Shown here one piece after another: positions 103 to 58,829 of a DNA stretch of 64,000 bases. Source of the DNA: Burkholderiales bacterium. GTDB taxonomy: Bacteria > Pseudomonadota > Gammaproteobacteria > Burkholderiales > SG8-41. The first letter of the stretch is position 1. Every line of letters starts with the position of its first letter. Under the pieces are notes generated by a model, which made no database searches, had not been told where the DNA came from, and saw nothing but the letters and a program-made list of their open reading frames with translations. A program made the translations under genes and the position numbers. The DNA lies in the NCBI GenBank assembly GCA_035259205.1, contig DATFWO010000318.1:7954-71953 (forward strand), read 5' to 3'.

Positions 103-118
103 TGGCGCGAAACTTGCT
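103..118 (+). promoter_or_regulatory. Sigma-54 (-24/-12) promoter
   Basis: TGGCGC-GAAAC-TTGCT has exact GG-N10-GC spacing. It is intergenic, about 95 nt upstream of the ATG at 212. Confidence 0.6.
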
Positions 119-211
119 TTCGCAAAGCTGGGGTAAACAAATAGGCGCATGCCTCTGTGTGGGCCTGCGTTTTGGCCTATTCTGGGGCCTGTTCCCATGG
201 GAGATACGGCT

Positions 212-703
212 ATGAAGAAGACACGAGTTTTGGCTTTTGTTATTTTCCTTGTCGCCTGCTCGGGCCCCGCATTCGCTGGATGCGGCAGTAATCCCTCCAA
301 ATTGACTCAGGCTCAGGTAGAGACGATTCTGCCGGGAAATTTTGCATGCGCCAGATCGACGACATTGGATCCCCCGGGATGGAACGAACGGCATCTCGGG
401 AGTGCCCCAGGAGGAACCCTGCAGGAGCAGCACGAAGGGGGTAGTACCGTCGAAACGGTGGGAACCTGGGCTACATCCACGCAGGGCGGTAACGGTAGAG
501 TGACTCATACCTATTCCGCTACCGTAGCCCCGATATACGAAATCGCGGTGGTCGCAGACGGAAATTGCAATCCCAACTGCACGAACCTTCCTCAGAACTA
601 TCAATTTTGTCCTGTTGGTGGTCCAGGGGCGCCCGCTGCCCCGATCACGGTCCTCGTCACGACGGCAGCTCCCACGCTGGCCGGCTGCCCTTCCAACCCT
701 TAG
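212..703 (+). CDS. Small secreted lipoprotein, function unknown
   Basis: Internal ATG of ORF 149..703, preceded by gggaga. The N-terminus MKKTRVLAFVIFLVAC has a signal peptide plus lipobox (LVAC). The mature part is Gly/Thr/Pro-rich with paired Cys. Confidence 0.6.
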   Translation: MKKTRVLAFVIFLVACSGPAFAGCGSNPSKLTQAQVETILPGNFACARSTTLDPPGWNERHLGSAPGGTLQEQHEGGSTVETVGTWATSTQGGNGRVTHTYSATVAPIYEIAVVADGNCNPNCTNLPQNYQFCPVGGPGAPAAPITVLVTTAAPTLAGCPSNP

Positions 704-720
704 TCGTCATCGCTACATGA

Positions 721-756
721 GGTCGCCCGGGATGTTTGATCCGCATCCCGGCGACC
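721..756 (+). terminator. GC-rich imperfect hairpin downstream of the lipoprotein gene (possible terminator, no U-tract)
   Basis: ggtcgcccgggatg / catcccggcgacc forms an inverted repeat with a 9-nt loop, beginning 18 nt after the stop at 703. Confidence 0.3.
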
Positions 757-1068
757 GACGACTGCCGCGACCGGCGGCGTGCGCTTTGTTGTTACCCTGG
801 TTCCGACGCTACTCGATCCTCGCTTGCCCGTTTCGGCGCCCGGGCTCGGTACCGCTGGCTTCGTCCGCTGCGCGTGACTCTCCGCCTTCCTGATCAGCGG
901 CAGGATTTCGTTGCGGTATCGCGCGTAGCGTCGGACAACCGGGTAATTTAGTATTCTGGCGTCGCGACGATGCATGCCTCGGCGCCAGCCCGCTCGCATG
1001 CGCGGCGTGCACAGCCGCATCGAGATCCATTGACGAGCCCATATACCGAAAGTGACTCCAGCCGGCGC

Positions 1069-4000
1069 ATGACCTTGGCCGTCGCCGCCGGCTGCTACCT
1101 GCTGTTCGTCGTCTATGGCAGCTTGGTGCCGCTGGACTTCAATCCCCGGCCACTGGAAACAGCGTGGCGGGAATTTCTCGATACAAAATATCTGACACTG
1201 GGTGTCCAGTCGCGCGCGGATTGGGTCGCCAACATCCTGCTCTACATTCCGCTCGCGTATCTGCTGAGCGCCGCGTTCGGGGCGCGCACTCGGTCTGCGG
1301 CCGCTCGCGTGCTGCTGGCTGGCGCGGTGTGGCTCGCGTGTGCCGCGCTTGCGCTGGGTATCGAGTTTACGCAGTTGTTTTTCCCGCCGCGCACGGTATC
1401 CCTTAACGACATCGTCGCCGAATTCATGGGGAGCGCGCTCGGCGTCGCCATCTGGCTCGGTTGGGGCGATGCGCTTCAGCGGCTGTGGGTCGAAATGATG
1501 CGCGGCGGATTGCCGGCAATCCGCGCCGCGGTCGTTCTCTACGTGCTGGCGTATCTGGCCTTGAGCTTCTTTCCGTACGATTTTCTCGTTTCGCTGAAGG
1601 AGTTCTCGGACAAGCTCGCCTCCGGCAACTATGGATTGCTCATGGCGCCCCAAACCTGCGAGCAATTGTCGATTTGCGCCAGCAAGCTCATCGCGGAGAT
1701 CGTAGTCGTCGTTCCGCTCGGCGTATTGCTGGGCATGGCGCTCGGCAGAGCTGCGCGGCACGCCTACGCCATCGCTGCGCTGTGCGGTGTGGTGCTCGGC
1801 CTGACGATAGAGGCTGTACAGCTGGTCATCGCGTCGGGAATCTCGCAGGGCGTGTCGGTGGCGACGCGCGCGGTGGGAATGGCGATCGGCGTGGCCTGGT
1901 ACCGGCATATGCGCTGGCAGTGGCTGTATGGACTGCGGCCGTACGCCATCCTTGCCGTCCTGCTGGCGATCCCGGCCTATCTGTTTGCCGTGATGTGGGC
2001 CAACGGCTGGTTCAGCGCGCGTTGGGGAGGGCTCGAGCACGCCCATGCCAGCCTGCAGGAGGTGAACTGGCTGCCCTTCTACTACCATTACTACACCACC
2101 GAAACGGAGGCCCTGCGCAGCGCGCTGACCAACGTCGCCATCTACATGCCGATCGGTGTCCTTTACTGGATGTGGACCCTGCGCCGCTCGCATACCTATT
2201 CCGACGGTTTGACCCTGGTTCCGGCCTTGATCGCCGCGCCGCTCGCGGTGGCGATGGAAGTAGGCAAGCTGTTCGTCCCGGGAAAACATCCCGATCCGAC
2301 CGACGTGCTGATTGCGACGGTTACGGCGCCGGCAGCCTACGTCCTGGCGCGGCAATTGCAAAGATGGGCAGTGGAAGGCGAATCGGGGGCCGGGCGTATC
2401 GCGGCACACCGTGGCTCGTCGGGCGCGGCTCAGGCCGTCCCCGTTGCGTCGCAAAGCGCGGGAAGAGTGGCGGCGGCGTTGCTGCTGCTCGCCGGCACCG
2501 GCATCGCGGCGTTCTACTATCCGCTCGGCGGCGGCTGGCTGGGGTTGGCGCTGGGGCTCTACGCCGCCGTGTTGTGGCGCCATCCGGGAGCGTCCCTGCC
2601 CGCCGTGCTCGCGCTGCTGCCTTTGCTCAACTTCGCGCCGTGGAGCGGCTGGATACTGCTCAATGAATTCGACCTGCTCGTCGCGGTTACGCTGGCGGTG
2701 CGCCTGCTGCGGCCACCCCCGCCAGTTCGCGGTCCCGTCCTTACCGGGTCTGCAAAGTACGCGATTGGACTGCTCGCAGTGTCCTTCCTCGCAAGCGCCA
2801 GCGTCGGTCTCCTGCCGTTGCCGTCGTTCGACCAGAATGCGCTGGTGAGCTACTACACGGGGTTCAACAGCCTCAGGCAATTGAAGGGCTTCGCGTGGGC
2901 GCTGGCGCTGCTGCCGCTGCTGATCGAGGAGACGCAAAACCGGCGCATGGATCAGCGACTGGCTGCGGGTACGCTCGCCGGACTGTGCGCGGTGGTTGCG
3001 GTGGTCGTTTGGGAGCGCGTCGTGTTTGCGAGCCTGAAGGATTTTGCCGGCGAGTATCGTGTCGACGGCCCGTTCCCGGAGCTGCACACCGGGGGCGGGG
3101 ACGTTCACGCCTATCTCGTGATGGCGATACCGCTCGTCGTGGCGTGGATCGCGCTGCGGCCCAATGCGATCCGGATCGCGTTTGGAACCGCCCTGTTTGC
3201 ACTTGCGAGCTACGCGCTCGCAATGACCTTCACCAGGGGTGGCTACGTGGGGTACTGCGGCGCGCTGGGGGTGCTCGCGGTCTCGGCGGTGATCTACTGG
3301 GTGCGGCAGCGCGCGTGGAGGCTCGGCCCCGTCGTTGTGGCTGGCGCGCTCGGGTTGGCCGGTCTCGCAGTCATGGTCCCGATCGTATCCGGCTCCTTCA
3401 TGGGGAGCCGGCTGGCGGCAGCGCATTCGGATGCCGCTACTCGCACGCGGCACTGGGCCGAGGCCATCAACATGATGGACCGCGGCACGGCGACTGCGCT
3501 GTTCGGGATGGGGCTGGGCAGTTTTCCGAAGACCGTCGTCTTCAAGGAGCGCGACGCAGCTTCGGCGACGTTCAGCTACAGGCAGGAAGGCGGCAACAGC
3601 TATGTGCGTCTGGGCTCGGGAAAAGCCCTGTATCTCGATCAGAGGGTAGCCGTCGAGGCTGGAAAGGCGTACACGATTTCGCTGGATCTGCGCAGCCCAA
3701 ACCGGGGGGCGAAGGTTGACATTCCCATCTGCGAAAAGAGCTTCCAGTACTCGTTCCGGTGCGGAAGCGTGAGCTTTGCGGTCAAGACGCCGGGGACGGG
3801 CTGGGAACACAACGAAGCTGCTTTCAACTCGAAGGAAGTCGGATCGGGTGCGCGGTTTCTGCAGCGTCCGGTGGCGCTCGGTCTTACCAATGCGCAGCCG
3901 GGCACCCTCGTTGACGTGGACAACGTGCGGCTGCTGGATGAAAAGGGCCGCAATCTTATCGCCAACGGAGATTTCTCGCGGGGCGGCGAGCGCTGGTTCT

Positions 4001-7910: not shown

Positions 7911-7927
7911 TGTCTAAAAATTTTACA
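7911..7927 (+). promoter_or_regulatory. 17-bp box copy (TGTCTAAAAATTTTACA)
   Basis: Matches TGTC..-N5-TTTTACA. It ends 63 bp upstream of the sigma-54 promoter at 7990, in the same orientation as the downstream gene. Confidence 0.6.
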
Positions 7928-7989: not shown

Positions 7990-8005
7990 TGGCTCAAAAA
8001 TTGCT
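7990..8005 (+). promoter_or_regulatory. Sigma-54 (-24/-12) promoter
   Basis: TGGCTC-AAAAA-TTGCT has correct spacing and lies 36 nt upstream of the ATG at 8041. Confidence 0.65.
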
Positions 8006-8040
8006 TCAGCGTGCATAGTTAATCTCTCGATTTCAAGCCC

Positions 8041-8949
8041 ATGAAACGAGCAATTATCCTGTTCATGGCGGTTATGGGATGGGCGCCGGCTGCGGTGTGG
8101 GCACTGGGCGAACCGGCGGTGCCGATCGAGGCACTCGAAGAATCGGCCGCGCGCACGGGCGATCCCGAAGCAATGACGCTGCTGGCGCAGAAGTACGAGC
8201 ACGCCGAAGGCGTCGCCAAAGATTTCAACCGGGCCAATGAGCTCTACTGCAAGGCCGCGAAACTCGGCTATGCGGAGGCGCAGTTCAAGCTCGGCTGGGT
8301 CTATGCCAATGGGCGCGGTGTGCCGCGCGACGACCACGTCGCGGCGGCGCTGTTTGCGTTGGCGGCCGATCAGGGCCACGAGTACGCCGCAAAGCTCCTT
8401 CCGTATGTGCGCCGCGATTCCGAGGCGAAATTGCCCGACTGCATGTTACCCGACACGGTCCGGGTCGCAACCGATGATCCTTTGGACTCGCCGCGCGGCC
8501 GCAGCGAGATCGAGTTGCTGGTGCACAGGCTGGCGCCGCAGTTTGCGGTGGATCCGAAGCTCGCGCTGGCGGTGATCTCCGTCGAATCTGCCTTCAATCC
8601 CGCGGCGATCTCGCCCAAGAACGCGCAAGGGTTGATGCAATTGATACCCGAGACCGCGGAGCGCTTCGGCGTGAAGCAGATCTTCAGCCCGGTCGAGAAC
8701 ATCAAGGGCGGGCTGGCGTATCTGCGCTGGCTGCTGGCGTTCTTCCAGGGCGACGTGCCGCTGGTCCTCGCGGCGTACAATGCGGGCGAGCGCGCGGTCG
8801 AGAAGTATCGCGGCATCCCTCCCTACGCGGAAACCCGCAACTACGTCAGAAAGATTACCAGCGTTTACCGCCAACCTCTTCATCCCTTCGATGCCGGCGT
8901 CGTCGAGCCTTCGCAGATCATGATCGAGGCGAAGCGCATCCGGCGCTAA
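8041..8949 (+). CDS. Secreted Sel1-repeat / lytic transglycosylase (SLT domain) protein
   Basis: Signal peptide MKRAIILFMAVMGWAPAAVWA. Sel1 repeats (AQKYEHAEGVAKDFNRANELYCKAAKLGYAEAQFKLGWVYANGRGVPRD). SLT catalytic region ISVESAFNPAAISPKNAQGLMQLIPETA and AAYNAGERAV. Confidence 0.8.
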   Translation: MKRAIILFMAVMGWAPAAVWALGEPAVPIEALEESAARTGDPEAMTLLAQKYEHAEGVAKDFNRANELYCKAAKLGYAEAQFKLGWVYANGRGVPRDDHVAAALFALAADQGHEYAAKLLPYVRRDSEAKLPDCMLPDTVRVATDDPLDSPRGRSEIELLVHRLAPQFAVDPKLALAVISVESAFNPAAISPKNAQGLMQLIPETAERFGVKQIFSPVENIKGGLAYLRWLLAFFQGDVPLVLAAYNAGERAVEKYRGIPPYAETRNYVRKITSVYRQPLHPFDAGVVEPSQIMIEAKRIRR

Positions 8950-14434: not shown

Positions 14435-14755
14435 CTAGCTCTGGACCAGATCTTCCAGGCGGCGTCTGGGTAGGGTTCCCCTTTGAGTCCCACCACTGGC
14501 GCATAGCAGGCTGGTGAGAGGGTTTCTGCGCTGGCGCCGCCGCCGTTCCTGGTGAGGGGCGCCATCGGAGACCCATTCCCCCTGAGCGAGCGGGGCGCGG
14601 GCCTGTTCCAGTCGCGCTACGACCATCTCGTTGCTGTGTAACAGGAATTCGAGAATGGTGCGCGTCTGGTTCTCTATCTTTAGCGACAGCATGTAGATGG
14701 CGGTTGCAGTCACCGCCAGTCCCACCACTATCAGCCACCCGATTAATTCATTCAT
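14435..14755 (-). CDS. Small single-pass membrane protein, unknown function
   Basis: ATG preceded by AGGA. N-terminal TM helix LIGWLIVVGLAVTATAIYML, then a short helical segment and an Arg-rich tail. A sigma-54 promoter and a 17-bp box lie upstream in the correct orientation. Confidence 0.35.
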   Translation of the reverse strand: MNELIGWLIVVGLAVTATAIYMLSLKIENQTRTILEFLLHSNEMVVARLEQARAPLAQGEWVSDGAPHQERRRRQRRNPLTSLLCASGGTQRGTLPRRRLEDLVQS

Positions 14756-14865: not shown

Positions 14866-14881
14866 CGCAATTTCCACGCCA
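14866..14881 (-). promoter_or_regulatory. Sigma-54 (-24/-12) promoter (minus strand)
   Basis: The reverse complement reads TGGCGT-GGAAA-TTGCG, about 110 nt upstream of the ATG at 14755. Confidence 0.5.
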
Positions 14882-14944: not shown

Positions 14945-14961
14945 TGTAAAATATTTCGACA
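14945..14961 (-). promoter_or_regulatory. 17-bp box copy (reverse complement TGTCGAAATATTTTACA)
   Basis: Oriented toward the minus-strand small ORF, 64 bp upstream of the minus-strand promoter at 14866-14881. It is also about 200 bp upstream of the plus-strand promoter at 15159. Confidence 0.6.
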
Positions 14962-15158
14962 GAAATTCGAGGAATTGCCGGGTAGACATTTCGCTGCTGC
15001 AAGACTCAAATCGCACAACGCGTCACGCTTCCGCCCTGTCATAAAGTCGACACGTGCGCTGAATTTCAATCACTGAGACGCACTGGTTTGGATCGGGCAT
15101 TGCCCTTTAACACCATGATTGTATTGAATTATAGGTGTTTACCTCGACGCGTTGCCGG

Positions 15159-15174
15159 TGGCACGCGGTTTGCG
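15159..15174 (+). promoter_or_regulatory. Sigma-54 (-24/-12) promoter in front of the sugar-transferase-prsK-prsR operon
   Basis: TGGCAC-GCGGT-TTGCG is a near-consensus match. The GC of the -12 element is only about 15 nt from the ATG at 15188. Confidence 0.55.
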
Positions 15175-15187: not shown

Positions 15188-16579
15188 ATGATCCCGATAT
15201 TCAGCCATTACGTTCCCGGCAGACTGATATTTCTCGCCGCTCTGGAGGCGGGAGTACTGTTGCTCGCTGCCTATGTCGGTATTTCCATGCACATGGCCGA
15301 GCCCGGCGTGATCGCCAGTTCCGCGCCCTCGCTGCCGCCGCAGATCGTCGCGTTTGTGTTCGGCATGTTGATCGTCATGTCGAGCATGGGTCTTTACCAG
15401 CCCGATCTGTGGGGCAATACCCAGGCGGTTGGCGTGCGCCTCGTTGCCGCGCTCGTGCTGGGATTTACTGTCATCGGGCTCGTTTCGCATCTGGTTCCGT
15501 CGCTGCACTTCGGTCCGCACGCACTCGGCGGCGCGCTGGTCGTAGCGCTGACCGGAAGCATTGTCGTCCGCGCCGCATTTTTCAAGTGGAGCAACCTGGG
15601 CGTATTCAAATCACGGGTGCTGGTGCTCGGCACGGGCTCGCGCGTGATGAGGCTTGCAGAATTTGCCCAGCACAATCCGAATCACGTCGTGATCGGGTAC
15701 GTCGCTCTCCAGGAGTCCAAGCACTACATTCCGCTGCCTCACGTGTTGCCCATGGAGCCCGGGGAATCGCTGTTGTCCATCGTCAGGAAGTACTCGATCG
15801 ACCAGATCGTCATTGCGGTGCGCGACCGGCGCGGAGGCGGCTTCCCGGTGCAGCCGCTGCTGGAGTGCCGCCTGAACGGCGTCAAGGTCACCGAGCTGCC
15901 GACGTTCTTCGAACGCGAGTACCGTCAGGTGCTGCTCGAGTCGCTCAACCCGAGCTGGATGGTCCTCGGAGAAGGTTTCCGTCAGGGATTTTTCCGCAAT
16001 TCCGTAAAGCGCTTGTTCGATCTGGCCGTGAGCGGTGTGCTGCTCCTGCTGACGCTGCCGATCATGTTCATCACCGCTATCTGTATCGCGCTCGAAAGCG
16101 GACTGCCCGTCCTGTATCGCCAGGACCGCGTCGGCCAGGGTGGCCGCATTTTCACGCTCTACAAGTTCCGCAGCATGAAGAACGATGCGGAGAACGACGG
16201 AACGCCGCGCTGGGCGGCCACCGACGATGACCGTACCACGTACGTGGGGAAGATCATCCGCAAGCTGCGGATCGATGAGCTGCCGCAGATCATCAACGTG
16301 CTGAAGGGCGACATGAGCTTTGTCGGACCGCGCCCGGAACGGCCGTATTTCGTCGACCAGCTCGGGAGGCAGATACCGTACTATGCATTGCGGCACAGCG
16401 TTAAGCCGGGGATCACCGGCTGGGCTCAGGTGCGTTACCCCTATGGCGCGTCAGTTGACGATGCGATCGAAAAACTTCAGTATGATCTGTACTATGTGAA
16501 GAATCACTGCCTCTTCCTCGATCTCATGATCCTGATCGATACCGTGCAAGTCGTATTGTGGGGCAAGGGGGCGAGATAG
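15188..16579 (+). CDS. Undecaprenyl-phosphate sugar phosphotransferase (priming sugar transferase, PEP-CTERM-locus EpsB/WbaP type)
   Basis: N-terminus MIPIFSHYVPGRL followed by TM helices. The C-terminal bacterial sugar transferase domain includes YKFRSM, DELPQIINVLKGDMSFVGPRPERP and GITGWAQV. The ORF-track start at 15152 is a TTG lying inside the promoter. Confidence 0.85.
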   Translation: MIPIFSHYVPGRLIFLAALEAGVLLLAAYVGISMHMAEPGVIASSAPSLPPQIVAFVFGMLIVMSSMGLYQPDLWGNTQAVGVRLVAALVLGFTVIGLVSHLVPSLHFGPHALGGALVVALTGSIVVRAAFFKWSNLGVFKSRVLVLGTGSRVMRLAEFAQHNPNHVVIGYVALQESKHYIPLPHVLPMEPGESLLSIVRKYSIDQIVIAVRDRRGGGFPVQPLLECRLNGVKVTELPTFFEREYRQVLLESLNPSWMVLGEGFRQGFFRNSVKRLFDLAVSGVLLLLTLPIMFITAICIALESGLPVLYRQDRVGQGGRIFTLYKFRSMKNDAENDGTPRWAATDDDRTTYVGKIIRKLRIDELPQIINVLKGDMSFVGPRPERPYFVDQLGRQIPYYALRHSVKPGITGWAQVRYPYGASVDDAIEKLQYDLYYVKNHCLFLDLMILIDTVQVVLWGKGAR

Positions 16580-16617
16580 CAAGAGGCTGTTGACCGGGCG
16601 CTGGACGGAAATAACCG

Positions 16618-18696
16618 ATGGCACTACCTGTCGGGACCTTGGGGTACGCCGCTGCAGCAGCGGCGTTTCTTTTTCTATCCGTGCTGTTGGTGATGAGCTG
16701 GCGCGGCCGCTTGCCCGGCATTTTGCTGGCCGCGGGCAGTCTCACGACCGTAGCGTGGGCGGGCGCAACAGCGTATCTCATCGCTCGGCCCGACCCCTCT
16801 CTATTCGCCGCCGACCTGCTCGAGGTTCTGCGCACCGCCGCATGGCTCATTTTCCTGATGGTGCTGCTCGGGTACGGCAGCAAGGAGGTCGGGCGCCTGC
16901 GGCTGTTCGCTGTTGCCCTGGTGGTGTTTTGCGGCGTGCTCTTCGCGGCGACGTTCTTTTCGGGCTATACGTTCGCGACCAGGCTGGGCGCCTTCGGCAT
17001 TTTCGGCCGGCTGACTCTGGCGGTGGTCGGCATGATCCTGGTCGAGCAGCTCTACCGCAACGTCAATCCGCAGCAGCGGTGGGGCATCAAGTTCCTGTGC
17101 CTCGGATTCGGCGGAATTTTCGCCTGCGATTTTTATCTTTACGCCGACGCGCAGTTGTTCCGGCGCGTGGACGGCGACATCTGGGCGGCGCGTGGTGTCG
17201 TCAACGCGCTGGTCGTCCCGCTCCTCGCCATCGCGACTGCGCGCAACCCGACGTTGTCGCTGGATGTGACCATTTCGCGTCGAATCGTGTTCCACTCCAC
17301 GGCGATGCTCGGGGCGGCGACGTACCTGCTGTTGATGGCGCTCGCCGGATTCTACATACGCTACTTCGGCGGCAACTGGGGCTCGGTGCTTCAGGTCATC
17401 TTCCTGTTCGGCGCCGTGATGTTGCTCTGCGCAATCCTGTTCTCGGGCACCCTCCGCGCCCGCCTGAAGGTCTTTCTCAGCAAGAACTTTTTCAGCTACC
17501 ACTACGATTACCGCGACGAATGGCTGCGCTTCACGCAAACGTTGTCGGAAGGCGAGCCCGGCACGCAATTGCGCGAGCGCTCCATCCAGGCGATCGCCGG
17601 CCTGGTCGACAGTCCGGGCGGCGCGCTGTGGCTGGCCCAGGAATCGGGGACTTTCGAGCTGAGCGCGCACTGGAACACTCCGAGCGCGAGCGGGACCGAG
17701 CAGGCCGACGGCGCGCTCTGCCAGTTCCTGGAACGGCGCCATTGGGTCATCGACCTCGACGAGTACGTGACGCACCCTGAGCTCTACGAGGGGCTCAAGA
17801 TCCCGGAATCGGTGCGTTTGGTCCCGCTCGCCTGGCTCGTGGTGCCGCTGACGCTTCACGAGCGGCTGGTGGGATTTGTGGTGCTCGTCCGGTCGCAGGG
17901 CCGCGTCAAGCTCAATTGGGAAGTGAACGACCTGCTGAAGACCGCCGGCCGGCAGGCGGCGAGCTACCTCGCACAGCTGGAGGCTGCCAAGGCGTTGCTG
18001 GTGGCGCGGCAGTTCGAATCTTTCAACCGCATGTCCGCATTCGTGGTGCACGACCTCAAGAACCTGGTGGCGCAGCTGTCGCTGCTCCTTTCGAATGCAG
18101 ACCGGCACAAGCACGAGCCCGCATTCCAGCAGGACATGATAGAGACGGTGGCCCATTCGGTCGAAAAGATGAGCCGGCTGTTGTTCCAGTTACGTGGCGG
18201 CTATACTCTGGAAGCTCCGAAGCCGGTCTCGCTCGAGGAGCTGCTGCGGCAGGTAGTCGCTGCACGTTCGGGCCTGAAGCCGGCTCCACGACTCGAGGTG
18301 CGAGACGGCTCGATGAGCGTGGTCGCCCACCGCGCGCGCCTCGAGCGCGTGATCGGCCACCTGGTCCAGAATGCCATTGACGCGACGCCCGCGGAGGGCA
18401 ATGTGGTAGTCCAGCTTTTGCGGCAGAATAGCTCTGCGGTGATCGAAATCGCCGATACCGGATGCGGAATGAGCGAGCAGTTCATCCGCTACCGGCTGTT
18501 CAAGCCGTTCGAGTCGACGAAAGCTGCGGGCATGGGAATCGGCACTTATGAGACGCAGCAGTATGTGAGGGAGCTCGGCGGACGCATCCATGTGGAGAGC
18601 CGGGAGGCGCGGGGAACCACCTTCCGCGTCGACCTCCCGTTACATGCCCATGCGGATGCCGCGGGAGAGGGTGTGGCGGTGGAGGACCAGGCTTGA
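16618..18696 (+). CDS. prsK: PEP-CTERM system sensor histidine kinase
   Basis: About 8 N-terminal TM helices and a GAF-like middle region. H-box FVVHDLKNLVAQL, N-box LVQNAIDAT and G-box IADTGCGM. It lies immediately upstream of, and overlaps, the sigma-54 activator gene. Confidence 0.85.
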   Translation: MALPVGTLGYAAAAAAFLFLSVLLVMSWRGRLPGILLAAGSLTTVAWAGATAYLIARPDPSLFAADLLEVLRTAAWLIFLMVLLGYGSKEVGRLRLFAVALVVFCGVLFAATFFSGYTFATRLGAFGIFGRLTLAVVGMILVEQLYRNVNPQQRWGIKFLCLGFGGIFACDFYLYADAQLFRRVDGDIWAARGVVNALVVPLLAIATARNPTLSLDVTISRRIVFHSTAMLGAATYLLLMALAGFYIRYFGGNWGSVLQVIFLFGAVMLLCAILFSGTLRARLKVFLSKNFFSYHYDYRDEWLRFTQTLSEGEPGTQLRERSIQAIAGLVDSPGGALWLAQESGTFELSAHWNTPSASGTEQADGALCQFLERRHWVIDLDEYVTHPELYEGLKIPESVRLVPLAWLVVPLTLHERLVGFVVLVRSQGRVKLNWEVNDLLKTAGRQAASYLAQLEAAKALLVARQFESFNRMSAFVVHDLKNLVAQLSLLLSNADRHKHEPAFQQDMIETVAHSVEKMSRLLFQLRGGYTLEAPKPVSLEELLRQVVAARSGLKPAPRLEVRDGSMSVVAHRARLERVIGHLVQNAIDATPAEGNVVVQLLRQNSSAVIEIADTGCGMSEQFIRYRLFKPFESTKAAGMGIGTYETQQYVRELGGRIHVESREARGTTFRVDLPLHAHADAAGEGVAVEDQA

Positions 18697-20075
18697 GCAA
18701 AGACGGGAAAATTCTGCTGATCGTCGAGGATGACCCCGGCCTGCAGAAGCAGATGCGCTGGAGCTTCGACGCCCATGAAACGCTCGTTGCGGGTGATCGC
18801 GAGAGTGCACTCGCATTGCTGCGCCGGCACGAGCCTCCGGTCGTTACCCTGGACCTGGGGCTTCCTCCGGACGCCGATGGGGCGTCGGAAGGGCTTGCGA
18901 CCCTGGAACAGATACTGGCCCTCGTGCCGGACACGAAGGTGATCGTGGTAACCGGCAATCAGGATCGCGCCAACGCGGTGAAGGCGGTCGGCATGGGCGC
19001 CTACGATTTCTACCAGAAGCCGTTCGAGCCGGAAGTACTGGGACTCGTCGTCGACCGGGCGTTTCGCCTGCATTCCCTGCAGCAGGAAAACCGCCGGCTG
19101 CAACAGCAGGCGTCGGAATCCGAAACCAAGGGCATCATCACCCGCGATCCGGCGATGCTCAAGGTATGTCGCAGCGTGGAGAAGGTGGCGCCCTCGGACG
19201 CCACGGTTCTGCTGCTGGGCGAGTCCGGCACGGGCAAGGAGTTGCTGGCCAAGGCCCTGCACCAGTCGAGCCCCCGTTCGGCCAAGCGGTTTGTCGCGAT
19301 CAACTGCGCGGCAATTCCGGAAACCCTGCTCGAGTCGGAGCTGTTCGGCTACGAGAAGGGGGCGTTTACCGGCGCGAACAAGCAAACCCGTGGCAAGATC
19401 GAGTTCGCCGATGGTGGTACGTTCTTTCTCGACGAGGTCGGGGATCTCTCGGCCGCATTGCAGGCGAAGTTGCTGCGCTTCCTTCAGGAACGCGTGGTCG
19501 AGCGCGTCGGGGGGCGGGAAGAGATTCCGGTCGATGTGCGCATCGTGTGCGCTACTCATCAGAACCTGAAGCAGCTGATCGCGGACGGCCGGTTCCGGGA
19601 GGATCTCTACTATCGTCTGAGTGAAATCGTGATCGCTATCCCGCCCCTCCGCGAGCGGCCCGGAGACGCGGCGCTGCTCGCGCACGCGTTCATGCATGCG
19701 TTCAGCCGCCAGCAAGGACGCTCCCTGCTCGGTTTCAAGCAGGATGCGCTCGACGCGATCGAGAACTATACCTGGCCGGGCAACGTGCGCGAGCTCGAGA
19801 ATTACATCAAGCGCGCGGTCATCATGGCCGATGGATCCCAGCTCAGTGCCGGTGATCTGGGGCTCGCGGTATCGCCTGGAGAGGCCGAGCCGGTCAACCT
19901 GCGGGAGGTGCGCGACGAGGCGGAACGGAAGGCAATCGTCAGAGTTCTGAGCCGGGTGGACGGCAACGTTGCCGACGCAGCGCAGTTGCTGGGCGTAAGC
20001 CGGCCCACGTTGTACCACTTGATCAATCGCTACGGCCTCAAGCAGCCCGGATCGTTCAAGCCGGAAGAGGCATGA
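18693..20075 (+). CDS. prsR: PEP-CTERM-box response regulator, sigma-54-dependent transcriptional activator
   Basis: Receiver domain (LLIVEDD, TLDLGLPPD), AAA+ domain (GESGTGKE, GAFTGA, the sigma-54 contact loop) and a C-terminal Fis-type HTH (AAQLLGVSRPTLYHLINRYGL). The TTG start overlaps the prsK TGA stop. Confidence 0.85.
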   Translation: MSKDGKILLIVEDDPGLQKQMRWSFDAHETLVAGDRESALALLRRHEPPVVTLDLGLPPDADGASEGLATLEQILALVPDTKVIVVTGNQDRANAVKAVGMGAYDFYQKPFEPEVLGLVVDRAFRLHSLQQENRRLQQQASESETKGIITRDPAMLKVCRSVEKVAPSDATVLLLGESGTGKELLAKALHQSSPRSAKRFVAINCAAIPETLLESELFGYEKGAFTGANKQTRGKIEFADGGTFFLDEVGDLSAALQAKLLRFLQERVVERVGGREEIPVDVRIVCATHQNLKQLIADGRFREDLYYRLSEIVIAIPPLRERPGDAALLAHAFMHAFSRQQGRSLLGFKQDALDAIENYTWPGNVRELENYIKRAVIMADGSQLSAGDLGLAVSPGEAEPVNLREVRDEAERKAIVRVLSRVDGNVADAAQLLGVSRPTLYHLINRYGLKQPGSFKPEEA

Positions 20076-20168: not shown

Positions 20169-20954
20169 TCAGCTGCCGAGAATGGCGCGGCGTCGCACTA
20201 AAGCTGCCAGCCCGAAGAGTCCAATCCCGAGCAACGCCACTGTGCCAGGCGATGCTACGACCTGGGATGTGCGGAATCCGGGACTGAGCATATCCACCTT
20301 CCAGTTGTCGCCGCCCAGCACGCCCGCAACGAGGAGGTAGCGCGGTGCGCTGCCTCCTTGTCCCCCTGAGCCGCCTGTATCCACACCAGACCCACCGCCA
20401 CTGAGGGAGGGGATACTGCCGGTGTACACCACGAGGTTATTGGTGGTGCTTGAAGAAGAGTCGTTCGTCGTGCCCTGAGTCGTGTTCGCACACCCGCTGA
20501 AACAGGCGTAGGTGAAATCGTAATTCCCGTTGGGATTCTGGCTCCCGAAAAACACCGAAAGCTCTGGCGCGCCTTGCGCCCCGGAACCGGAGCCGGAACT
20601 ATCCGGCCAACCCAGCCGCAAGGCGTCTGCGTCGAGTCCCTCTGCTGGCAACTCGAACACCGCCACGGCTACGGTGCCGCCCGCATACTTCGTTAACGAT
20701 CCCCCTTCGTAGCTGCCGCCGGCAAGCTGGTTGCCAGTCCCGAATCCTCCGCTGTAGAGCGCGAGCTGGAGAATGTTCGTGAAGAGACTGCTACCCCCAA
20801 TCGAGCCGGTATTCACGCTCGAATACTGACCGGTATTAGCGGCTACCTGATAGGTACCTTGGGTGGTATAAGACGACAGCCACTGCGTCGCCCCCACAGG
20901 CGCAGCAATGAGGACTCCGAAGATCGCTGCCAAGAACACCAAAATTCGTACCAT
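20169..20954 (-). CDS. PEP-CTERM-type sorting-domain protein (variant motif), Gly/Ser/Thr-rich secreted protein
   Basis: Signal peptide MVRILVFLAAIFGVLIAAPVGA. C-terminus VASPGTVALLGIGLFGLAALVRRRA has the motif, TM helix and Arg cluster, with SPG in place of PEP. The start was chosen at the internal ATG because the longer ORF would include the sigma-54 promoter. Confidence 0.75.
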   Translation of the reverse strand: MVRILVFLAAIFGVLIAAPVGATQWLSSYTTQGTYQVAANTGQYSSVNTGSIGGSSLFTNILQLALYSGGFGTGNQLAGGSYEGGSLTKYAGGTVAVAVFELPAEGLDADALRLGWPDSSGSGSGAQGAPELSVFFGSQNPNGNYDFTYACFSGCANTTQGTTNDSSSSTTNNLVVYTGSIPSLSGGGSGVDTGGSGGQGGSAPRYLLVAGVLGGDNWKVDMLSPGFRTSQVVASPGTVALLGIGLFGLAALVRRRAILGS

Positions 20955-21021: not shown

Positions 21022-21037
21022 AGCAAGTTTCGGGCCA
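21022..21037 (-). promoter_or_regulatory. Sigma-54 (-24/-12) promoter (minus strand)
   Basis: The reverse complement reads TGGCCC-GAAAC-TTGCT, about 68 nt upstream of the ATG at 20954. Confidence 0.65.
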
Positions 21038-21135: not shown

Positions 21136-21152
21136 TGTAAAAAACATGGACA
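21136..21152 (-). promoter_or_regulatory. 17-bp box copy (reverse complement TGTCCATGTTTTTTACA), proximal site
   Basis: Lies 99 bp upstream of the promoter at 21022-21037, in gene orientation. Confidence 0.55.
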
Positions 21153-21267: not shown

Positions 21268-21284
21268 TGTAAAAAAAACCGACA
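21268..21284 (-). promoter_or_regulatory. 17-bp box copy (reverse complement TGTCGGTTTTTTTTACA), distal site
   Basis: Lies 132 bp from the proximal copy. It is identical to the copy at 24899-24915. Confidence 0.6.
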
Positions 21285-24270: not shown

Positions 24271-24286
24271 TGGTCCGGAAATTGCT
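24271..24286 (+). promoter_or_regulatory. Sigma-54 (-24/-12) promoter
   Basis: TGGTCC-GGAAA-TTGCT lies 37 nt upstream of the ATG at 24323. Confidence 0.55.
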
Positions 24287-24322: not shown

Positions 24323-24580
24323 ATGAAGATCCTGTCCGCCGAGAAATCCAAGCTGCTGGCCGAGCAGAATGGCTGGTCGCTGGAATTTGCGCAAGGTTTT
24401 GTCGACGGCGAAACGTCGCGCAGACTCGGCAAGGCGCCTGCGCTGCTTGCGCTGGTCGGAATCGACGAGCGTTCCATGGGCTTTCGGGCCGGATACTTCG
24501 AGCGGGTGAACCTTGAGCCCGCGCGGACTGCGAAATCGGACACGCCCGTCAGGCGTCGTGAGCAGGTTCGGGTCGGCTGA
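24323..24580 (+). CDS. Conserved small cytoplasmic protein (85 aa), paralog of 58858..59088, unknown function
   Basis: RBS aagggg. About 60 percent identity by eye over 61 aa to the second copy (ILSxEKxKxLAExNGWSL, GFVDGE, LVGIDE, GFRAGYFER). No signal peptide or TM helix. Confidence 0.65.
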   Translation: MKILSAEKSKLLAEQNGWSLEFAQGFVDGETSRRLGKAPALLALVGIDERSMGFRAGYFERVNLEPARTAKSDTPVRRREQVRVG

Positions 24581-24898: not shown

Positions 24899-24915
24899 TG
24901 TCGGTTTTTTTTACA
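24899..24915 (+). promoter_or_regulatory. 17-bp box copy (TGTCGGTTTTTTTTACA)
   Basis: Lies 207 bp upstream of the PEP-CTERM gene start at 25122, in gene orientation. Confidence 0.6.
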
Positions 24916-25121
24916 AGACGCCTCGATAGCGGATTTTGAGTCCTGGGTTTGTTGCATAGAAAACAATATGAAACAATGAGTTGAACTAATACCTCGATTA
25001 TGAGCATGAATATTGCTTCCGGTTTCCGGTGCAATTTTCCGGTTGTTAAGTAAAGGCGTTACTGGCGTACGCCTTGTCCACTAGACCCGGCTGGTGGAAT
25101 CTGGTTTTTGGGGAGGGGTGA

Positions 25122-42424: not shown

Positions 42425-43411
42425 CTATACAGAAGACTTGCTGCGGCGTGCCGCCACCCCGAATCCGGCCAGGGCCAGACCGAGAAGGGCGAGCGTGCCC
42501 GGCTCGGGAGCCGTCAGGACTTGGAACTGGAAGTCGCCGCGGGCAAACGGGTCGACGCCGTCTACGTATGTAGCGCCCGTCGTTGAAAGCCCCTTACCAC
42601 CTTGTACGGTGCCTGACCCCTTGAAGTCGACGGGAAACAGGGGATTGCCAAAGAAGGGGCAGCCTGCAGGAGGCAAGTTGGTGTCGCAAATCTGCGGGTC
42701 CACATCCGGCCCGGTGCCGCCCGCCCCTTGCTGGAACGCGAAGTCGGGCGTGCCAACAATGCCGGTGACTTGCTTCACGAGCGAGGGGTTGTCGCTTGCA
42801 GTAATTGTCAGGTGCTCGTTGCCGGCCGGCGCCCCGCTAGCCCCCGTGAACACAACGTTCCAAAATAACGTCCCGTTCGAAGCGCCCGTCAGGCAACTAG
42901 ACAAGCTGACTTGGGCACCGGCGAGCGCGGTGTTGCAGTCACCGGCAGCGAGATCCATATCCGCGATCGGGCCGTCCCAAGTACGGGCGATGGTGCCGGC
43001 CGGCGCCCCGGCGGTAGCCGCCGCTGGTATTACTAGTCCGGGCGCGAAGGGTACCGTATTAGAAAGGAATCCCGTGGGATTCGCGCCAAAAACAAAGAGG
43101 AATTGCCCGGGTCCAGCAGGGATCTTGGTAAGTACAAACTGATCTATGATACCGGTGAACTCGGGCGGAGTGATGGTAACCGAGCTGCCGGGCCCCGTGG
43201 CGGGGTGAGTTGACTGAACCGTGATGATCGCGACGATGCTGTCGCCCTTGTCGATCAAGCCATTCCCGTTCCGGTCGATAAAAAAGTCGAGCAGGTCGTC
43301 CTCGAACGCCGTGCCCGCCGGTCCGAAGAACGTGGGTGCAGCCGTCGCCGTCCCCCCCAGCCCCATGCCCAGTGCAAGCGCGACGCTTGCGGAAAGTGTT
43401 TTCAGTTTCAT
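42425..43411 (-). CDS. PEP-CTERM sorting-domain protein (canonical motif)
   Basis: Signal peptide MKLKTLSASVALALGMGLGGTATA. C-terminus VLTAPEPGTLALLGLALAGFGVAARRSK. RBS aaggga. Confidence 0.85.
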   Translation of the reverse strand: MKLKTLSASVALALGMGLGGTATAAPTFFGPAGTAFEDDLLDFFIDRNGNGLIDKGDSIVAIITVQSTHPATGPGSSVTITPPEFTGIIDQFVLTKIPAGPGQFLFVFGANPTGFLSNTVPFAPGLVIPAAATAGAPAGTIARTWDGPIADMDLAAGDCNTALAGAQVSLSSCLTGASNGTLFWNVVFTGASGAPAGNEHLTITASDNPSLVKQVTGIVGTPDFAFQQGAGGTGPDVDPQICDTNLPPAGCPFFGNPLFPVDFKGSGTVQGGKGLSTTGATYVDGVDPFARGDFQFQVLTAPEPGTLALLGLALAGFGVAARRSKSSV

Positions 43412-43473: not shown

Positions 43474-43489
43474 AGCAACGGCCGTGCCA
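43474..43489 (-). promoter_or_regulatory. Sigma-54 (-24/-12) promoter (minus strand)
   Basis: The reverse complement reads TGGCAC-GGCCG-TTGCT, a consensus-grade match, 63 nt upstream of the ATG at 43411. Confidence 0.7.
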
Positions 43490-43563
43490 TAATTTATAAC
43501 TACTTGATACTTAGAATAAATATAAATACCCGCCCCAGACCACTGGCTTATCCGAAGCCGATT

Positions 43564-43580
43564 GATAAAATTTTCCGACA
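43564..43580 (-). promoter_or_regulatory. 17-bp box copy (reverse complement TGTCGGAAAATTTTATC), proximal site
   Basis: Lies 75 bp upstream of the promoter at 43474-43489, in gene orientation. Confidence 0.55.
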
Positions 43581-43676: not shown

Positions 43677-43693
43677 TGTAAAATTTACCGACA
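43677..43693 (-). promoter_or_regulatory. 17-bp box copy (reverse complement TGTCGGTAAATTTTACA), distal site
   Basis: Lies 113 bp from the proximal copy, in gene orientation. Confidence 0.6.
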
Positions 43694-55769: not shown

Positions 55770-55868
55770 CCCGCATGACTCACACGTACTGAGACTGTGC
55801 GGTTCTCGAGGCGGCGACGCTTTGTTTGGCGTCCGAGCATCGGGCTGACTACTTAATTCATGTAGCAG

Positions 55869-55894
55869 CTTGTCGGACGGCTGAGCCCGACAAG
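55869..55894. terminator. Hairpin between convergent genes (weak terminator candidate)
   Basis: cttgtcgg / ccgacaag forms an 8-bp stem with a 10-nt loop, 5 nt beyond the stop of the minus-strand PrsT paralog. There is no clear U-tract. Confidence 0.25.
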
Positions 55895-55898
55895 GTGC

Positions 55899-58685
55899 TC
55901 ACCGGCTGAGTTCCGCCAACAATTCTCTTGCTTCCTTGGCGAACCTTGAATCTGGGGAATTGGCCAGCAATTTCTCCAGTTCCTGTCGCGCTTTAGTACG
56001 ATCCCCCGTTTTGACGAGCGCCCGTGCCAGGTGGTACCGAGGTTCGGTAGCCTTGGGCATGTCGGTCACCGCCTTCTGCAGCAGCTCGAGCCCACGTTCG
56101 GCGTTGCCCCGCTCGACCAGCATCCAGCCGAGTGTGTCGGCGGCCGCCGCGTTGGGACTGAGCTTATAGGCGCGCTCCGCCGTCTCCAATGCGCGGGAAT
56201 CCTTGACGCCGTGATAGGCCACGGCGAGGTTGTTGAGCAGCTGCGCGTCGTCAGGCTGTTTTTTCAGCAACCACTCGTAGTCTTCGATTGCCTCCTTATA
56301 CATGCCGCTCTTGAGGTGATTGTCCGCGCGGTAACGCCGCACCATTGCGTCGTCCGGCGATTCCTTCAGCCACTGCGCCAGGCGCCCCTCAGCTTCCTCC
56401 GGCTTCCCGGCCCGCGTTAACGCCGCGTGCAGCTTGATCAGGACGGTGCCGCTCTTGCCCATGCCGTAGGCGACTTCGTACGCCTTGACGGCTTGCGGAA
56501 ATTTCCTCTCCGCCATCAGGACGTCGCCTTCGAGGACAAAGCCTGCGGGAGACTTGGCGGACCGCTTTTGCACCTGCTGCGCGATCTTCATCGCCTCCGA
56601 ATAACGCTTCGCGCGCAACTCGAACGCGGCGAGCGCCATTTGAGCGTCAGTGAAATCGGGCTGCAACGAAACCGCTTTGCGCAGCGCGTTCGTCGCTCTC
56701 GTCCGGTCGCCACTGACTGCGTATGCCTTAGCGAGTTGCATGAGGGCGGCCGCAGATTTGGGCTGGAGCGCGACGAGCTTCTCGTAGGTACTCACCGCCT
56801 GTTCATTCGCGCCGGCGCCGATCTGGGTGGCGCCCAATGTATGCAGCACTTCCGGATCATCCGGGCGCGCGGTCCGTGCCTGTTGTGCGACCTCCAGCGC
56901 TTTTTTCCAATCTTCGGACTTCGCGTAGGCGCGCGCCAGCATCAACTGCGGTTGCACCGAATTGGGACTCGCTTTGCGGGCGCGCTCCAACCAGTCGATC
57001 TGCTCTTTCGGCGTGGCGCCGATGCGCGCGGCGAAATTGCTGAGCGCCAGCAGAGCCTGCGTATTGTCCTTGTCCCTTTCGAGAATGGCCTCGAGGCGGC
57101 GACGCGCGCTCGCCGGCTGCTTATCCTCGAGGTCGAGTTGTGCGAGGTTAGTCGCCGCCGGCACGAAGGTCGGCTGCAGCTGGAGCGCGCGCTCGAAGGC
57201 CTTGCGCGCAGCCGCTCCTTCATTCTTGTTCCTATAGATCAAACCCTTCAGATTGTAGGTCAGCGGATTATTCGGCTGCTTCTTCTCGAAGGATTGCATC
57301 GCCTGCAGCGCCTGGTCGTAATTCGCCTGCTGCAGGAGCAACAGAACGAGCAGAAAGTCCGCGCGGTATGAGTTGGGGTCCACCGCCACCGCAGACTCTA
57401 GATCCGCCAGCGCGCGATCCGTTTCGCCGGCAGCCAATCGGCTTGCTCCCAGGCCGATGCGCGCCTCCGCGCTCTTGGGATCGAGCTTCGCCGCCTTCTC
57501 GAAATACTGGATCGCGATGGCGAACTCGTTGCTTCGCAGGTATACCTCGCCGGCGAGCGCCATCAGCGCTCCGTCTTCCGGCGCCTGCCGGAGGCTGGGC
57601 TGCAACACGTCGATGGCGCGCTGCGTCTGGCCGGCTTCCGCCAGCGACGCAATCAGCAGCTTCCGCGCATAGAGAAAGCCGGGCGCGCGTTCGACGACCT
57701 GTCCAAGGTGCGCCTGCGCTTGGGCGTGCGTTCCCAGGGCATACTCGGCCGCGCCCGCCAGCAATACGCTCGGCAGATAATCTGGCGCCACCTTGAGCAC
57801 TTCCAGCGCCGCGTCGTGCGCAACGGTGTACTTTTTCTGCTGAAACTCGATCAACGCAAGCAAGTGTTTCCTCTGTAGGAGGTTGGGAGCGAGCTTGCGC
57901 ACCTCTTCTAGTTGCTTGCGCGCCTCATCGAAGTTGCTGGCGGTGATGTGCTGCCACGCCATGTTGACGCGAGCTTGGACATCTTCCGGGCTGATCTCGA
58001 GGACCTTCTGGTAGGCCGCCATGGCGCCTGCCTGATCGGCCCTGAACCGGGCAAGATCGCCTTTCATCAGCCATGCATCTACGTTCTTCGGCGCGCTGGC
58101 GAGCGCCCGCTCGATCAATTTCGACGCTTCATCCGGTTTGTTCTGGATTGCCGCAAGGCGCGCCTGCGCGAGCAGCGCATCGGCGAACTCCGGCTGCTTG
58201 GCGAGCGCCTGCTCGAGCAGCTCGCGTCCTTCCGGGATGCGGTTGAGTCCGAACGACGCCATCGCCCGCAGTGTCAGGATTTCGGCTTGCACCGCGTCGC
58301 CGGCATTGGTGTCCGGAGGCACCTGGTCGAGCACCTTCTGGAATTCGCCCATCATCAGCAGCGACTTGCCGATCTTTACCTTGGCCAGGTCGTAACGCAG
58401 GTCCAGGGCCTTGCGCAGCTCTATTTCGGCCGATTTGAAATCACCCACGTCGTTGTAGGTCACGCCCAGGAGGTAACGCGCTTCGGCGTTCTGCGGAGAC
58501 TTCTGCAGCAGGCTCTTCAGGTGGACGATCGCGCTCCTATAGTGACCTTTGTCGCGCTCCTGCCTGGCGTCCGCAAGAATTTGCTCGGGGTTCGCGCTCT
58601 GCTCCTTGCAACCTGAGGAAAGCAGCAGGAGCGAGAGCACCACTGCGCACGCTGCGAAGCCGCGCATGTTTCTGGTTCTGATCAT
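55899..58685 (-). CDS. PrsT-like TPR-repeat lipoprotein (paralog 4 of 4)
   Basis: 928 aa of TPR repeats. Lipobox LLLSSGC. Highly similar to 29314..32109. Confidence 0.8.
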   Translation of the reverse strand: MIRTRNMRGFAACAVVLSLLLLSSGCKEQSANPEQILADARQERDKGHYRSAIVHLKSLLQKSPQNAEARYLLGVTYNDVGDFKSAEIELRKALDLRYDLAKVKIGKSLLMMGEFQKVLDQVPPDTNAGDAVQAEILTLRAMASFGLNRIPEGRELLEQALAKQPEFADALLAQARLAAIQNKPDEASKLIERALASAPKNVDAWLMKGDLARFRADQAGAMAAYQKVLEISPEDVQARVNMAWQHITASNFDEARKQLEEVRKLAPNLLQRKHLLALIEFQQKKYTVAHDAALEVLKVAPDYLPSVLLAGAAEYALGTHAQAQAHLGQVVERAPGFLYARKLLIASLAEAGQTQRAIDVLQPSLRQAPEDGALMALAGEVYLRSNEFAIAIQYFEKAAKLDPKSAEARIGLGASRLAAGETDRALADLESAVAVDPNSYRADFLLVLLLLQQANYDQALQAMQSFEKKQPNNPLTYNLKGLIYRNKNEGAAARKAFERALQLQPTFVPAATNLAQLDLEDKQPASARRRLEAILERDKDNTQALLALSNFAARIGATPKEQIDWLERARKASPNSVQPQLMLARAYAKSEDWKKALEVAQQARTARPDDPEVLHTLGATQIGAGANEQAVSTYEKLVALQPKSAAALMQLAKAYAVSGDRTRATNALRKAVSLQPDFTDAQMALAAFELRAKRYSEAMKIAQQVQKRSAKSPAGFVLEGDVLMAERKFPQAVKAYEVAYGMGKSGTVLIKLHAALTRAGKPEEAEGRLAQWLKESPDDAMVRRYRADNHLKSGMYKEAIEDYEWLLKKQPDDAQLLNNLAVAYHGVKDSRALETAERAYKLSPNAAAADTLGWMLVERGNAERGLELLQKAVTDMPKATEPRYHLARALVKTGDRTKARQELEKLLANSPDSRFAKEARELLAELSR

Positions 58686-58813
58686 GGAACGAAATACCCC
58701 CCCTCTTAGGACGGCGATTTTGCTCCGGCAGCGGTTTGCCGGACCAGGAATTTTCGCATTTTCTTGTTGCCCGGGAATACTACCTGATTCCGTGAATTTG
58801 TTCCGGCCCGGCT

Positions 58814-58829
58814 TGGCGCGCTAATTGCT
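58814..58829 (+). promoter_or_regulatory. Sigma-54 (-24/-12) promoter
   Basis: TGGCGC-GCTAA-TTGCT lies 29 nt upstream of the GTG at 58858. Confidence 0.55.

Follow-up and report, generated by a model that had tools for sequence, protein, structure and literature searches.

Predicted sigma-54 promoters of three classes in an exopolysaccharide locus of the XrtA/PEP-CTERM type from an uncultured soil proteobacterium

In this work, we examine eight predicted sigma-54 (-24/-12) promoters in a 64,000-nt stretch of DNA (the window; Burkholderiales bacterium, contig DATFWO010000318.1, forward strand), which derives from a soil-metagenome contig and very likely represents an exopolysaccharide (EPS) locus of the XrtA/PEP-CTERM type from an uncultured soil proteobacterium. 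Seven or more of these sites, and probably the full set, appear to be functional sigma-54 promoters, and they fall with comparable likelihood into three classes: promoters preceded by a 17-bp box of the PrsR type (class I), the promoter of the epsB2-prsK-prsR genes with a different palindrome upstream (class II), and the promoters of two small paralogous genes with no recognizable enhancer (class III). Binding, activation, and transcription starts are discussed here as predictions from the presence, enrichment, geometry, and conservation of the elements.

Sigma-54 sites and their enrichment in the window

The eight 16-mers put forward in the original prediction were all recovered with the same letters, positions, and strands (Table 1). 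Their GG and GC elements lie exactly 10 nt apart in an extended match to TGGCAC-N5-TTGCW, and they score 11.3 to 18.2 bits with a matrix whose frequencies only approximate the published consensus YTGGCACG-N4-TTGCW. The minimal pattern had been written as TGG-N9-TTGC, which is off by one: that form has 17 matches in the window, none of them a listed site, and the correct form, TGG-N8-TTGC, has 23, comprising all eight listed sites plus 15 elsewhere, versus 8.8 +/- 3.0 in 100 dinucleotide shuffles, all of which stay below 23. Listed sites account for six of the seven positions at ≥14.5 bits and for seven of the nine at ≥12.5 bits. Although intergenic DNA oriented toward a gene start constitutes just 6.25% of all strand positions in the window, seven of the nine matches at ≥12.5 bits fall within it (binomial p ~1e-7), compared with 0.22 on average and never more than 3 in 1000 dinucleotide shuffles of these regions; at ≥11 bits, nine matches were observed versus 0.69 expected.

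Strong intragenic matches were detected at 2345, 27277, and 57518, and two or three such matches correspond to the number predicted by chance (about three expected). The best of them, at 2345 (15.1 bits), was considered as an internal promoter and taken as a chance match, as it is not conserved in the orthologue of a related locus (L040; L numbers denote related loci compared with the window, W). Conservation thus does separate real from chance sites. On the same basis, the proposal that sigma-54 control extends beyond the PEP-CTERM substrates holds, since orthologous loci with diverged intergenic DNA conserve the promoters of a Sel1/SLT lytic transglycosylase gene, a lipoprotein gene, epsB2-prsKR, and the small-protein family.

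The identity of the locus follows from a gene map built from the periodicity of GC content at third codon positions (GC3) and from family searches, in which EpsB2, a priming glycosyltransferase, PrsK, and PrsR all score far above the cut-offs of their models. PrsR carries the GAFTGA motif at residue 223 and a Walker A motif (GESGTGK) at residue 176, and is the sole sigma-54 activator seen in the window; rpoN is not among the window genes. Three paralogues match the PrsT model TIGR02917 at 724-919 bits, far above its cut-off, and an exosortase-associated acyltransferase and three genes with PEP-CTERM-type tails are also encoded. The nearest PrsK relatives in the genome collection belong to metagenome-assembled genomes of uncultured Burkholderiales/betaproteobacteria (70-76% identity).

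Promoters with a PrsR-type box

The box TGT-N7-TTTTACA occurs in eight copies with ≤1 mismatch in the window versus 0.54 expected, in addition to one copy clipped at the window start (1-15) and one variant with a single-base insertion (43563-43580), and every copy is intergenic. The original prediction placed a box at five of the eight promoters, and an upstream copy was indeed found for each of the five, the clipped copy among them. The box TGTCG-N5-TTTTACA together with a sigma-54 element very likely defines a class I (PrsR-type) set, which comprises the promoters of PEP-CTERM genes 1 and 2 and those of the genes for the lipoprotein, the Sel1/SLT transglycosylase, and a small membrane protein. 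Two further members of the class had been overlooked, namely the degenerate promoter of a boxed third PEP-CTERM gene (at 25122) and a promoter truncated by the window end.

Class I promoters carry one or two boxes, located 62-98 nt upstream of the TGG. Spacers are measured here between the box end and the TGG, and may thus be off by a few bases relative to distances taken to the 17-nt motif 2 as published. In the related loci, where the best sigma-54 match anywhere 30-130 nt downstream of the box was taken, spacers group at 52, 61-65, 75-76, and 84-87 nt; pooled with those of the window, they group at 52, 61-65, 73-76, 84-87, and 98 nt, in steps of approximately one helical turn (Rayleigh R = 0.87 at an 11.5-bp period, in a post hoc test on partly orthologous sites). 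This phasing fits an activator that needs one face of the helix. Double boxes are seen at three promoters (PEP-CTERM gene 1, PEP-CTERM gene 2, and the window end), with the second box 113-133 bp farther upstream, which resembles a fixed double-enhancer arrangement.

None of the non-substrate targets encodes a PEP-CTERM protein. The composite promoter of the Sel1/SLT transglycosylase gene is shared by the window, L002, L007, L010, and L173, with the box at -127 to -135 and the sigma-54 element at -47 to -54 relative to the start codon; L005 has the sigma-54 element without a box, L174/175 have a weaker pair with a 75-nt spacer, and neither element is found upstream of the gene in L172, where a transposase fragment is located. 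In the window, a Wzz-like chain-length-determinant gene (9039-10949) starts 89 nt after the SLT gene, and because no convincing terminator separates the two, cotranscription from the SLT promoter is plausible; the gene downstream of SLT varies among relatives. In L010 (6271-13401), a boxed SLT promoter is followed on the same strand by tviB, tviC, prsK, and prsR, without epsB2, and in that relative transcription of the regulator genes may start from the SLT promoter.

The lipoprotein promoter is retained in L043 and L044, whose orthologues are 58-59% identical at the protein level, with a full box at -213 and -217 and a sigma-54 element at -112 and -113, respectively. The L040 orthologue has a degenerate box, a 61-nt spacer, and a GAGCAT-type -24 element. 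The lipoprotein leader itself (window 165-211) contains a segment, TTTGGGCCTATTCT..GGGCC.GTT...GGAGATA, that is kept in the L043, L044, and L040 orthologues (56-59% identity) and has no Rfam match; a possible GGCC/GGCC hairpin lies just ahead of the ribosome-binding site. For the small membrane protein, homologues occur in L002 and L007, and L007 has the gene immediately after SLT in the same orientation, where it would share the SLT promoter. A second match upstream of this gene in the window (14777-14792, minus strand, 11.7 bits) was not adopted because it has no box at a phased distance.

With regard to the PEP-CTERM genes, an IHF-like sequence, TATCAAGTAGTTA, which matches WATCAA-N4-TTR exactly, lies between the proximal box variant and the promoter of gene 2. 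The -24 GG and -12 GC of the published motif 2 are present at all listed sites, and the candidate ninth promoter at 25002, upstream of gene 3, has AG for GG. The gene 3 orthologues in L007 and L008 possess a box and a good GG site. The sequence GAGCATG-N4-TTGCT, with AG for the near-invariant GG, follows a phased box in two unrelated promoters, that of gene 3 (86 nt) and that of the lipoprotein orthologue in L040 (61 nt; ~3860-3880), and this -24 variant may be a tolerated weak form in the PEP-CTERM box regulon.

A census of 120 metagenome loci with an exact box and sigma-54 composite yielded 93 complete downstream open reading frames (ORFs), 63 of which end in a PEP-CTERM-like tail. The other 30 are of mixed kinds (S8 and trypsin-like proteases, endonuclease I, fn3, a 3D-domain protein, and others), and some are probably miscalled or chance matches. 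As none of the 120 composites precedes an SLT or lipoprotein homologue, these targets are clade-specific rather than universal. One exact composite (L084, 30-449, minus strand) precedes a small 3D-domain protein of the MltA/RlpA-type cell-wall-binding fold, a second, non-homologous murein-related target.

Promoters of epsB2-prsK-prsR and of the small paralogous genes

The class II promoter, upstream of epsB2, is conserved in L002, L005, L006, and L016. A TGT-N10-ACA palindrome, a candidate enhancer, is kept in W, L002, and L005, and its left half differs in L006 (TCGACGCGAACTCGACA); a conserved TAAC..TGAT element resembling a site for integration host factor (IHF) lies between the palindrome and the promoter in the same alignment. 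The conserved N-terminus MI[RP]IF[SN]HY fixes where epsB2 starts, so the predicted leader spans only ~3 nt in the window. L005 and L006 likewise have predicted leaders of 1-4 nt, whereas in L002 and L016 the sigma-54 element lies 53 nt upstream of the ATG, leaving a leader of ~27 nt. A second palindrome, TGTC-N8-GACA (TGTCGATACCGCGACA, 59103-59118), is found just after small protein B and upstream of a MacA-like adaptor gene, with no plus-strand sigma-54 site after it.

The class III genes encode small proteins A and B, which are 67% identical. Both window copies and the homologues in L002, L005, L046, and L049/50 have a sigma-54 element 44-55 nt ahead of the start codon; a canonical site is missing at the homologues in L045 and L047. 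The L049 gene retains its promoter although PEP-CTERM genes are absent from its neighborhood, which encodes a type I secretion system. Neither a box nor, within 320 nt, a TGT-N10/11-ACA motif was found upstream of the small-protein promoters, and the only 9-mer shared by five of six small-protein loci (GCACCGTGC) was rejected as an enhancer, being GC-rich and part of a terminator in one locus. Co-regulation of the two small genes with the sorted substrates is unlikely, since they have no box upstream and homologues outside PEP-CTERM loci keep the promoter.

The same observations bear on the original view of all eight promoters as one regulon. What stands is that the sites behave as genuine sigma-54 promoters; what does not is the unity of their control, as the PrsR-type box is present at only five, epsB2 has a different palindrome, and the small-protein promoters have no recognizable enhancer. 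It is nevertheless conceivable, if unlikely, that PrsR controls all eight, acting on epsB2-prsKR and the small genes through distant, weak, or TGT-N10-ACA sites. In favor of this, no sigma-54 activator other than PrsR was seen in the window, the right palindrome half (CGACA) reads on the opposite strand as TGTCG, the left half of the box, an opposite-strand box lies ~200 bp upstream of the epsB2 promoter, and the small genes adjoin PrsT-like TPR genes in the window. However, in none of the genomes examined do the 330 nt around the epsB2, small protein A, or small protein B promoters contain a box with ≤2 mismatches, the palindrome spacing is N10 and not N11, and the lack of TGT-N10/11-ACA motifs and the persistence of small-protein promoters away from PEP-CTERM genes (as beside the L049 secretion system) point the same way. 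Under the preferred three-class reading, the class II promoter is most simply explained by autoregulation by PrsR or by a second activator, and the class III genes are probably controlled by another activator or by one that binds in a non-canonical way.

A further possibility concerns epsB2 alone: the element at 15159-15174 could bind sigma-54 without being productive, the operon being transcribed from farther upstream and the holoenzyme acting as a roadblock or a poised complex. The predicted start only 1-4 nt before a firmly conserved ATG in W, L005, and L006, the lack of a Shine-Dalgarno sequence, and the absence of the site from farther relatives would suit such an arrangement. It is nonetheless improbable, because L002 and L016 have a normal leader of ~27 nt, the palindrome and the IHF-like element complete an enhancer-dependent promoter architecture, and a simple sigma-70 consensus scan of window positions 1-16000 returned no promoter-like site versus 3.4 expected from shuffles. 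That three or more of the eight sites are chance matches, with only the PEP-CTERM-gene promoters real and no wider regulon, is very improbable indeed: the minimal pattern does occur 15 further times in the window, three intragenic matches are strong, the original prediction considered intergenic DNA only, and the site at 14866 scores low, but the excess in promoter-oriented intergenic DNA (7 versus 0.22 at ≥12.5 bits, 9 versus 0.69 at ≥11 bits), the unchanged start-codon distance of non-PEP-CTERM promoters in diverged orthologous loci, the canonical 63-nt spacing of 14866 from a perfect box, and the discriminating power of conservation seen at 2345 all argue otherwise.

Several observations weigh against our interpretation of the sites as functional promoters in three classes. 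The sigma-54 matrix is approximate, and the small-membrane-protein promoter scores just 11.3 bits and was not found in L002. The spacing test was post hoc, and at PEP-CTERM gene 1 the spacer is 98 nt long, beyond the published range of 32-92 nt, into which the other tested spacers (62, 63, 73, 86, and 87 nt) fall. An epsB2 leader of ~3 nt without a Shine-Dalgarno sequence is unusual, and the site is absent in the farther relatives L007-L013, L017, and L018. The read runs that contain the window are soil-metagenome DNA, with no RNA among those that match it.

The remaining features of the window are included in Table 1. A fourth large TPR gene (21346-24246, minus strand), which was scanned against Pfam only and has Pfam TPR matches, is counted as a PrsT paralogue. 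The Wzz-like gene has a C-terminal Phage_integrase-like domain that falls just below the Pfam gathering score in the window; the gene after the locus genes in L040 and in the contig of P0229 also matches Pfam Phage_integrase, and the fusion may be conserved. No Rfam match was obtained in the window at gathering thresholds.

Table 1. Predicted promoter elements, boxes, and associated genes of the window, in order of position
Feature	Position	Strand	Sequence or model	Remarks
Box, lipoprotein	1..15	+	..TCGGAAATTTTTACA	first two bases clipped by window start
Sigma-54 promoter, lipoprotein	103..118	+	TGGCGCGAAACTTGCT	15.0 bits; 87-nt spacer; predicted +1 ~129; leader ~83 nt
Lipoprotein gene	212..703	+		163 aa; lipobox LVAC; no family match; not PEP-CTERM
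Box, SLT	7911..7927	+	TGTCTAAAAATTTTACA	
Sigma-54 promoter, SLT	7990..8005	+	TGGCTCAAAAATTGCT	14.8 bits; 62-nt spacer; leader ~25 nt
Sel1-repeat and SLT lytic transglycosylase gene	8041..8949	+		
Small single-pass membrane protein gene	14435..14755	-		106 aa; conserved C-terminal RRRLED
Sigma-54 promoter, small membrane protein	14866..14881	-	TGGCGTGGAAATTGCG	11.3 bits; canonical 63-nt spacer; leader ~100 nt
Box, small membrane protein	14945..14961	-	TGTCGAAATATTTTACA	perfect
Conserved palindrome, candidate enhancer	15037..15052	+	TGTCATAAAGTCGACA	TGT-N10-ACA; 106 nt upstream of epsB2 -24 element
Sigma-54 promoter, epsB2	15159..15174	+	TGGCACGCGGTTTGCG	14.7 bits; predicted +1 ~15185, ~3 nt before ATG 15188
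epsB2-prsK-prsR block	15188..20075	+	family models	
epsB2	15188-16579	+	TIGR03013	priming glycosyltransferase; far over cut-off
prsK	16618-18696	+	TIGR02916	876 bits, far over cut-off
prsR	18693-20075	+	TIGR02915	750 bits, far over cut-off
PEP-CTERM-type gene 1	20169..20954	-	SPGTVALLGIGLFGLAALVRRR	C-terminal tail
Sigma-54 promoter, PEP-CTERM gene 1	21022..21037	-	TGGCCCGAAACTTGCT	15.0 bits; 98 nt from proximal box; leader ~57 nt
Proximal box, PEP-CTERM gene 1	21136..21152	-	TGTCCATGTTTTTTACA	
Distal box, PEP-CTERM gene 1	21268..21284	-	TGTCGGTTTTTTTTACA	
Sigma-54 promoter, small protein A	24271..24286	+	TGGTCCGGAAATTGCT	12.8 bits; without box; leader ~26 nt
Small protein A	24323..24580	+		85 aa; divergent from TPR gene 21346-24246 (-)
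Box, PEP-CTERM gene 3	24899..24915	+	TGTCGGTTTTTTTTACA	
Degenerate sigma-54-like element, candidate ninth promoter (gene 3)	25002..25017	+	GAGCATGAATATTGCT	AG for GG; 86-nt spacer
PEP-CTERM-type gene 3	25122-26219	+		
PEP-CTERM gene 2	42425..43411	-	PF07589 / TIGR02595	
Sigma-54 promoter, PEP-CTERM gene 2	43474..43489	-	TGGCACGGCCGTTGCT	18.2 bits, best in the window; leader ~52 nt
Proximal box variant, PEP-CTERM gene 2	43563..43580	-	TGTCGGAAAATTTTATCA	one extra base; 73 nt upstream of -24 element
Distal box, PEP-CTERM gene 2	43677..43693	-	TGTCGGTAAATTTTACA	
PrsT paralogue D	55899-58685	-		
Sigma-54 promoter, small protein B	58814..58829	+	TGGCGCGCTAATTGCT	15.0 bits; without box; leader ~18 nt
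Small protein B	58858..59088	+		76 aa; GTG start; divergent from PrsT paralogue D
Distal box, window end	63762..63778	+	TGTCGAGGATTTTTACA	
Proximal box, window end	63895..63911	+	TGTCGGAAAATTTTACA	
Probable -24 half of further promoter	63989..64000	+	TGGTACGGTCTA	77 nt after box; clipped by window end

Proposed mechanism and comparison with known systems

Soil and wastewater bacteria rely on PEP-CTERM/exosortase systems to form flocs and biofilms, and, to our knowledge, the PrsK/PrsR regulon has so far been defined almost solely by PEP-CTERM targets. In line with established knowledge of NtrC-family activators, an envelope signal would activate the kinase PrsK, which would phosphorylate PrsR; PrsR would then bind the box and oligomerize, and, with the intervening DNA looped out and perhaps bent by IHF, its GAFTGA loop would contact and remodel the closed complex of the sigma-54 holoenzyme. 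The sorted substrates and accessory envelope proteins would thereby be switched on together, and the epsB2-prsK-prsR mRNA would be nearly leaderless. Taken as a whole, one tentative scenario, possible rather than probable, is that in this betaproteobacterial soil clade PrsK/PrsR runs an envelope-remodelling program that goes beyond switching on sorted substrates, in which a dedicated Sel1/SLT enzyme opens murein for EPS/exosortase export, the lipoprotein and the RRRLED membrane protein are fired from phased PrsR boxes, and PrsR, bound to another kind of site, regulates its own sensor-regulator operon from a near-leaderless sigma-54 promoter. The three conserved non-substrate targets (SLT, lipoprotein, and small membrane protein) provide concrete starting points for the question of how polymer and sorted proteins get through the cell wall, and the three-class split implies that a sigma-54 promoter in an exosortase locus need not be a PrsR target.

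The kind of element described here is not new, since its architecture, a 17-nt motif 1 ending in TTTACA followed by a spacer and a sigma-54 motif 2, was reported together with a PrsK/R/T profile (Haft, Paulsen, Ward and Selengut 2006, BMC Biol 4:29; PMC1569441). In that study, the spacer had a mean of 62.8 nt (standard deviation 10.6, range 32-92 nt), and composites before non-PEP-CTERM genes were allowed (PMC1569441). The window shares with this description the TTTACA-ending 17-nt motif, the spacer centered at ~63 nt, the -24 GG and -12 GC, the confinement of elements to intergenic DNA, the occasional repetition of motif 1, and the presence of PrsK, PrsR, and PrsT. It differs in that its non-PEP-CTERM targets are named and conserved (Sel1/SLT, lipoprotein, and small membrane protein), one 98-nt spacer is out of range, the spacers change in helical-turn steps, and three of the eight promoters have no motif 1. 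With both the architecture and the possibility that it extends to other genes on record since 2006, the gain is incremental and consists of the transglycosylase, lipoprotein, and small-membrane-protein targets.

Gao et al. (2018; cited in PMC13453990) reportedly found that Zoogloea resiniphila requires PrsK-PrsR/RpoN to form flocs. In Aquincola tertiaricarbonis RN12, transcription of pepA is RpoN1-dependent with a mapped start, and that of prsT is not RpoN1-dependent (PMC9850573). These systems resemble the window in having a TGGCAC...TGC sigma-54 promoter before a PEP-CTERM gene, an epsB2-prsK-prsR cluster, and a predicted upstream enhancer. The two studies tested PEP-CTERM genes and reported no transglycosylase, lipoprotein, or small-protein target, whereas the window is known from sequence alone.

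Enhancers of the NifA/NtrC type consist of TGT-N10-ACA motifs or inverted repeats ~100 bp upstream of the promoter, with IHF bound between. The epsB2 region has a comparable layout, with TGT-N10-ACA 106 nt upstream and a WATCAA-N4-TTR-like element between. Unlike in those systems, no NifA or NtrC homologue is encoded in the window, and the binder of the palindrome may be PrsR itself.

Specialized lytic transglycosylases are co-regulated with envelope-spanning machines, including flagellar, type III, and type IV secretion systems. The best NCBIfam match of the window SLT domain is NF047373, a Borrelia flagellar-assembly transglycosylase, at 78.7 bits versus a cut-off of 234 bits, so that only domain homology is indicated. 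As with machine-linked transglycosylases, the window SLT is under the promoter logic of the exported cargo and adjoins polysaccharide export genes; in contrast to them, its dedicated role in EPS/PEP-CTERM export is a proposal from co-regulation and synteny, which suggest that a transglycosylase placed under the control of the cargo may create space in the sacculus for the export apparatus.

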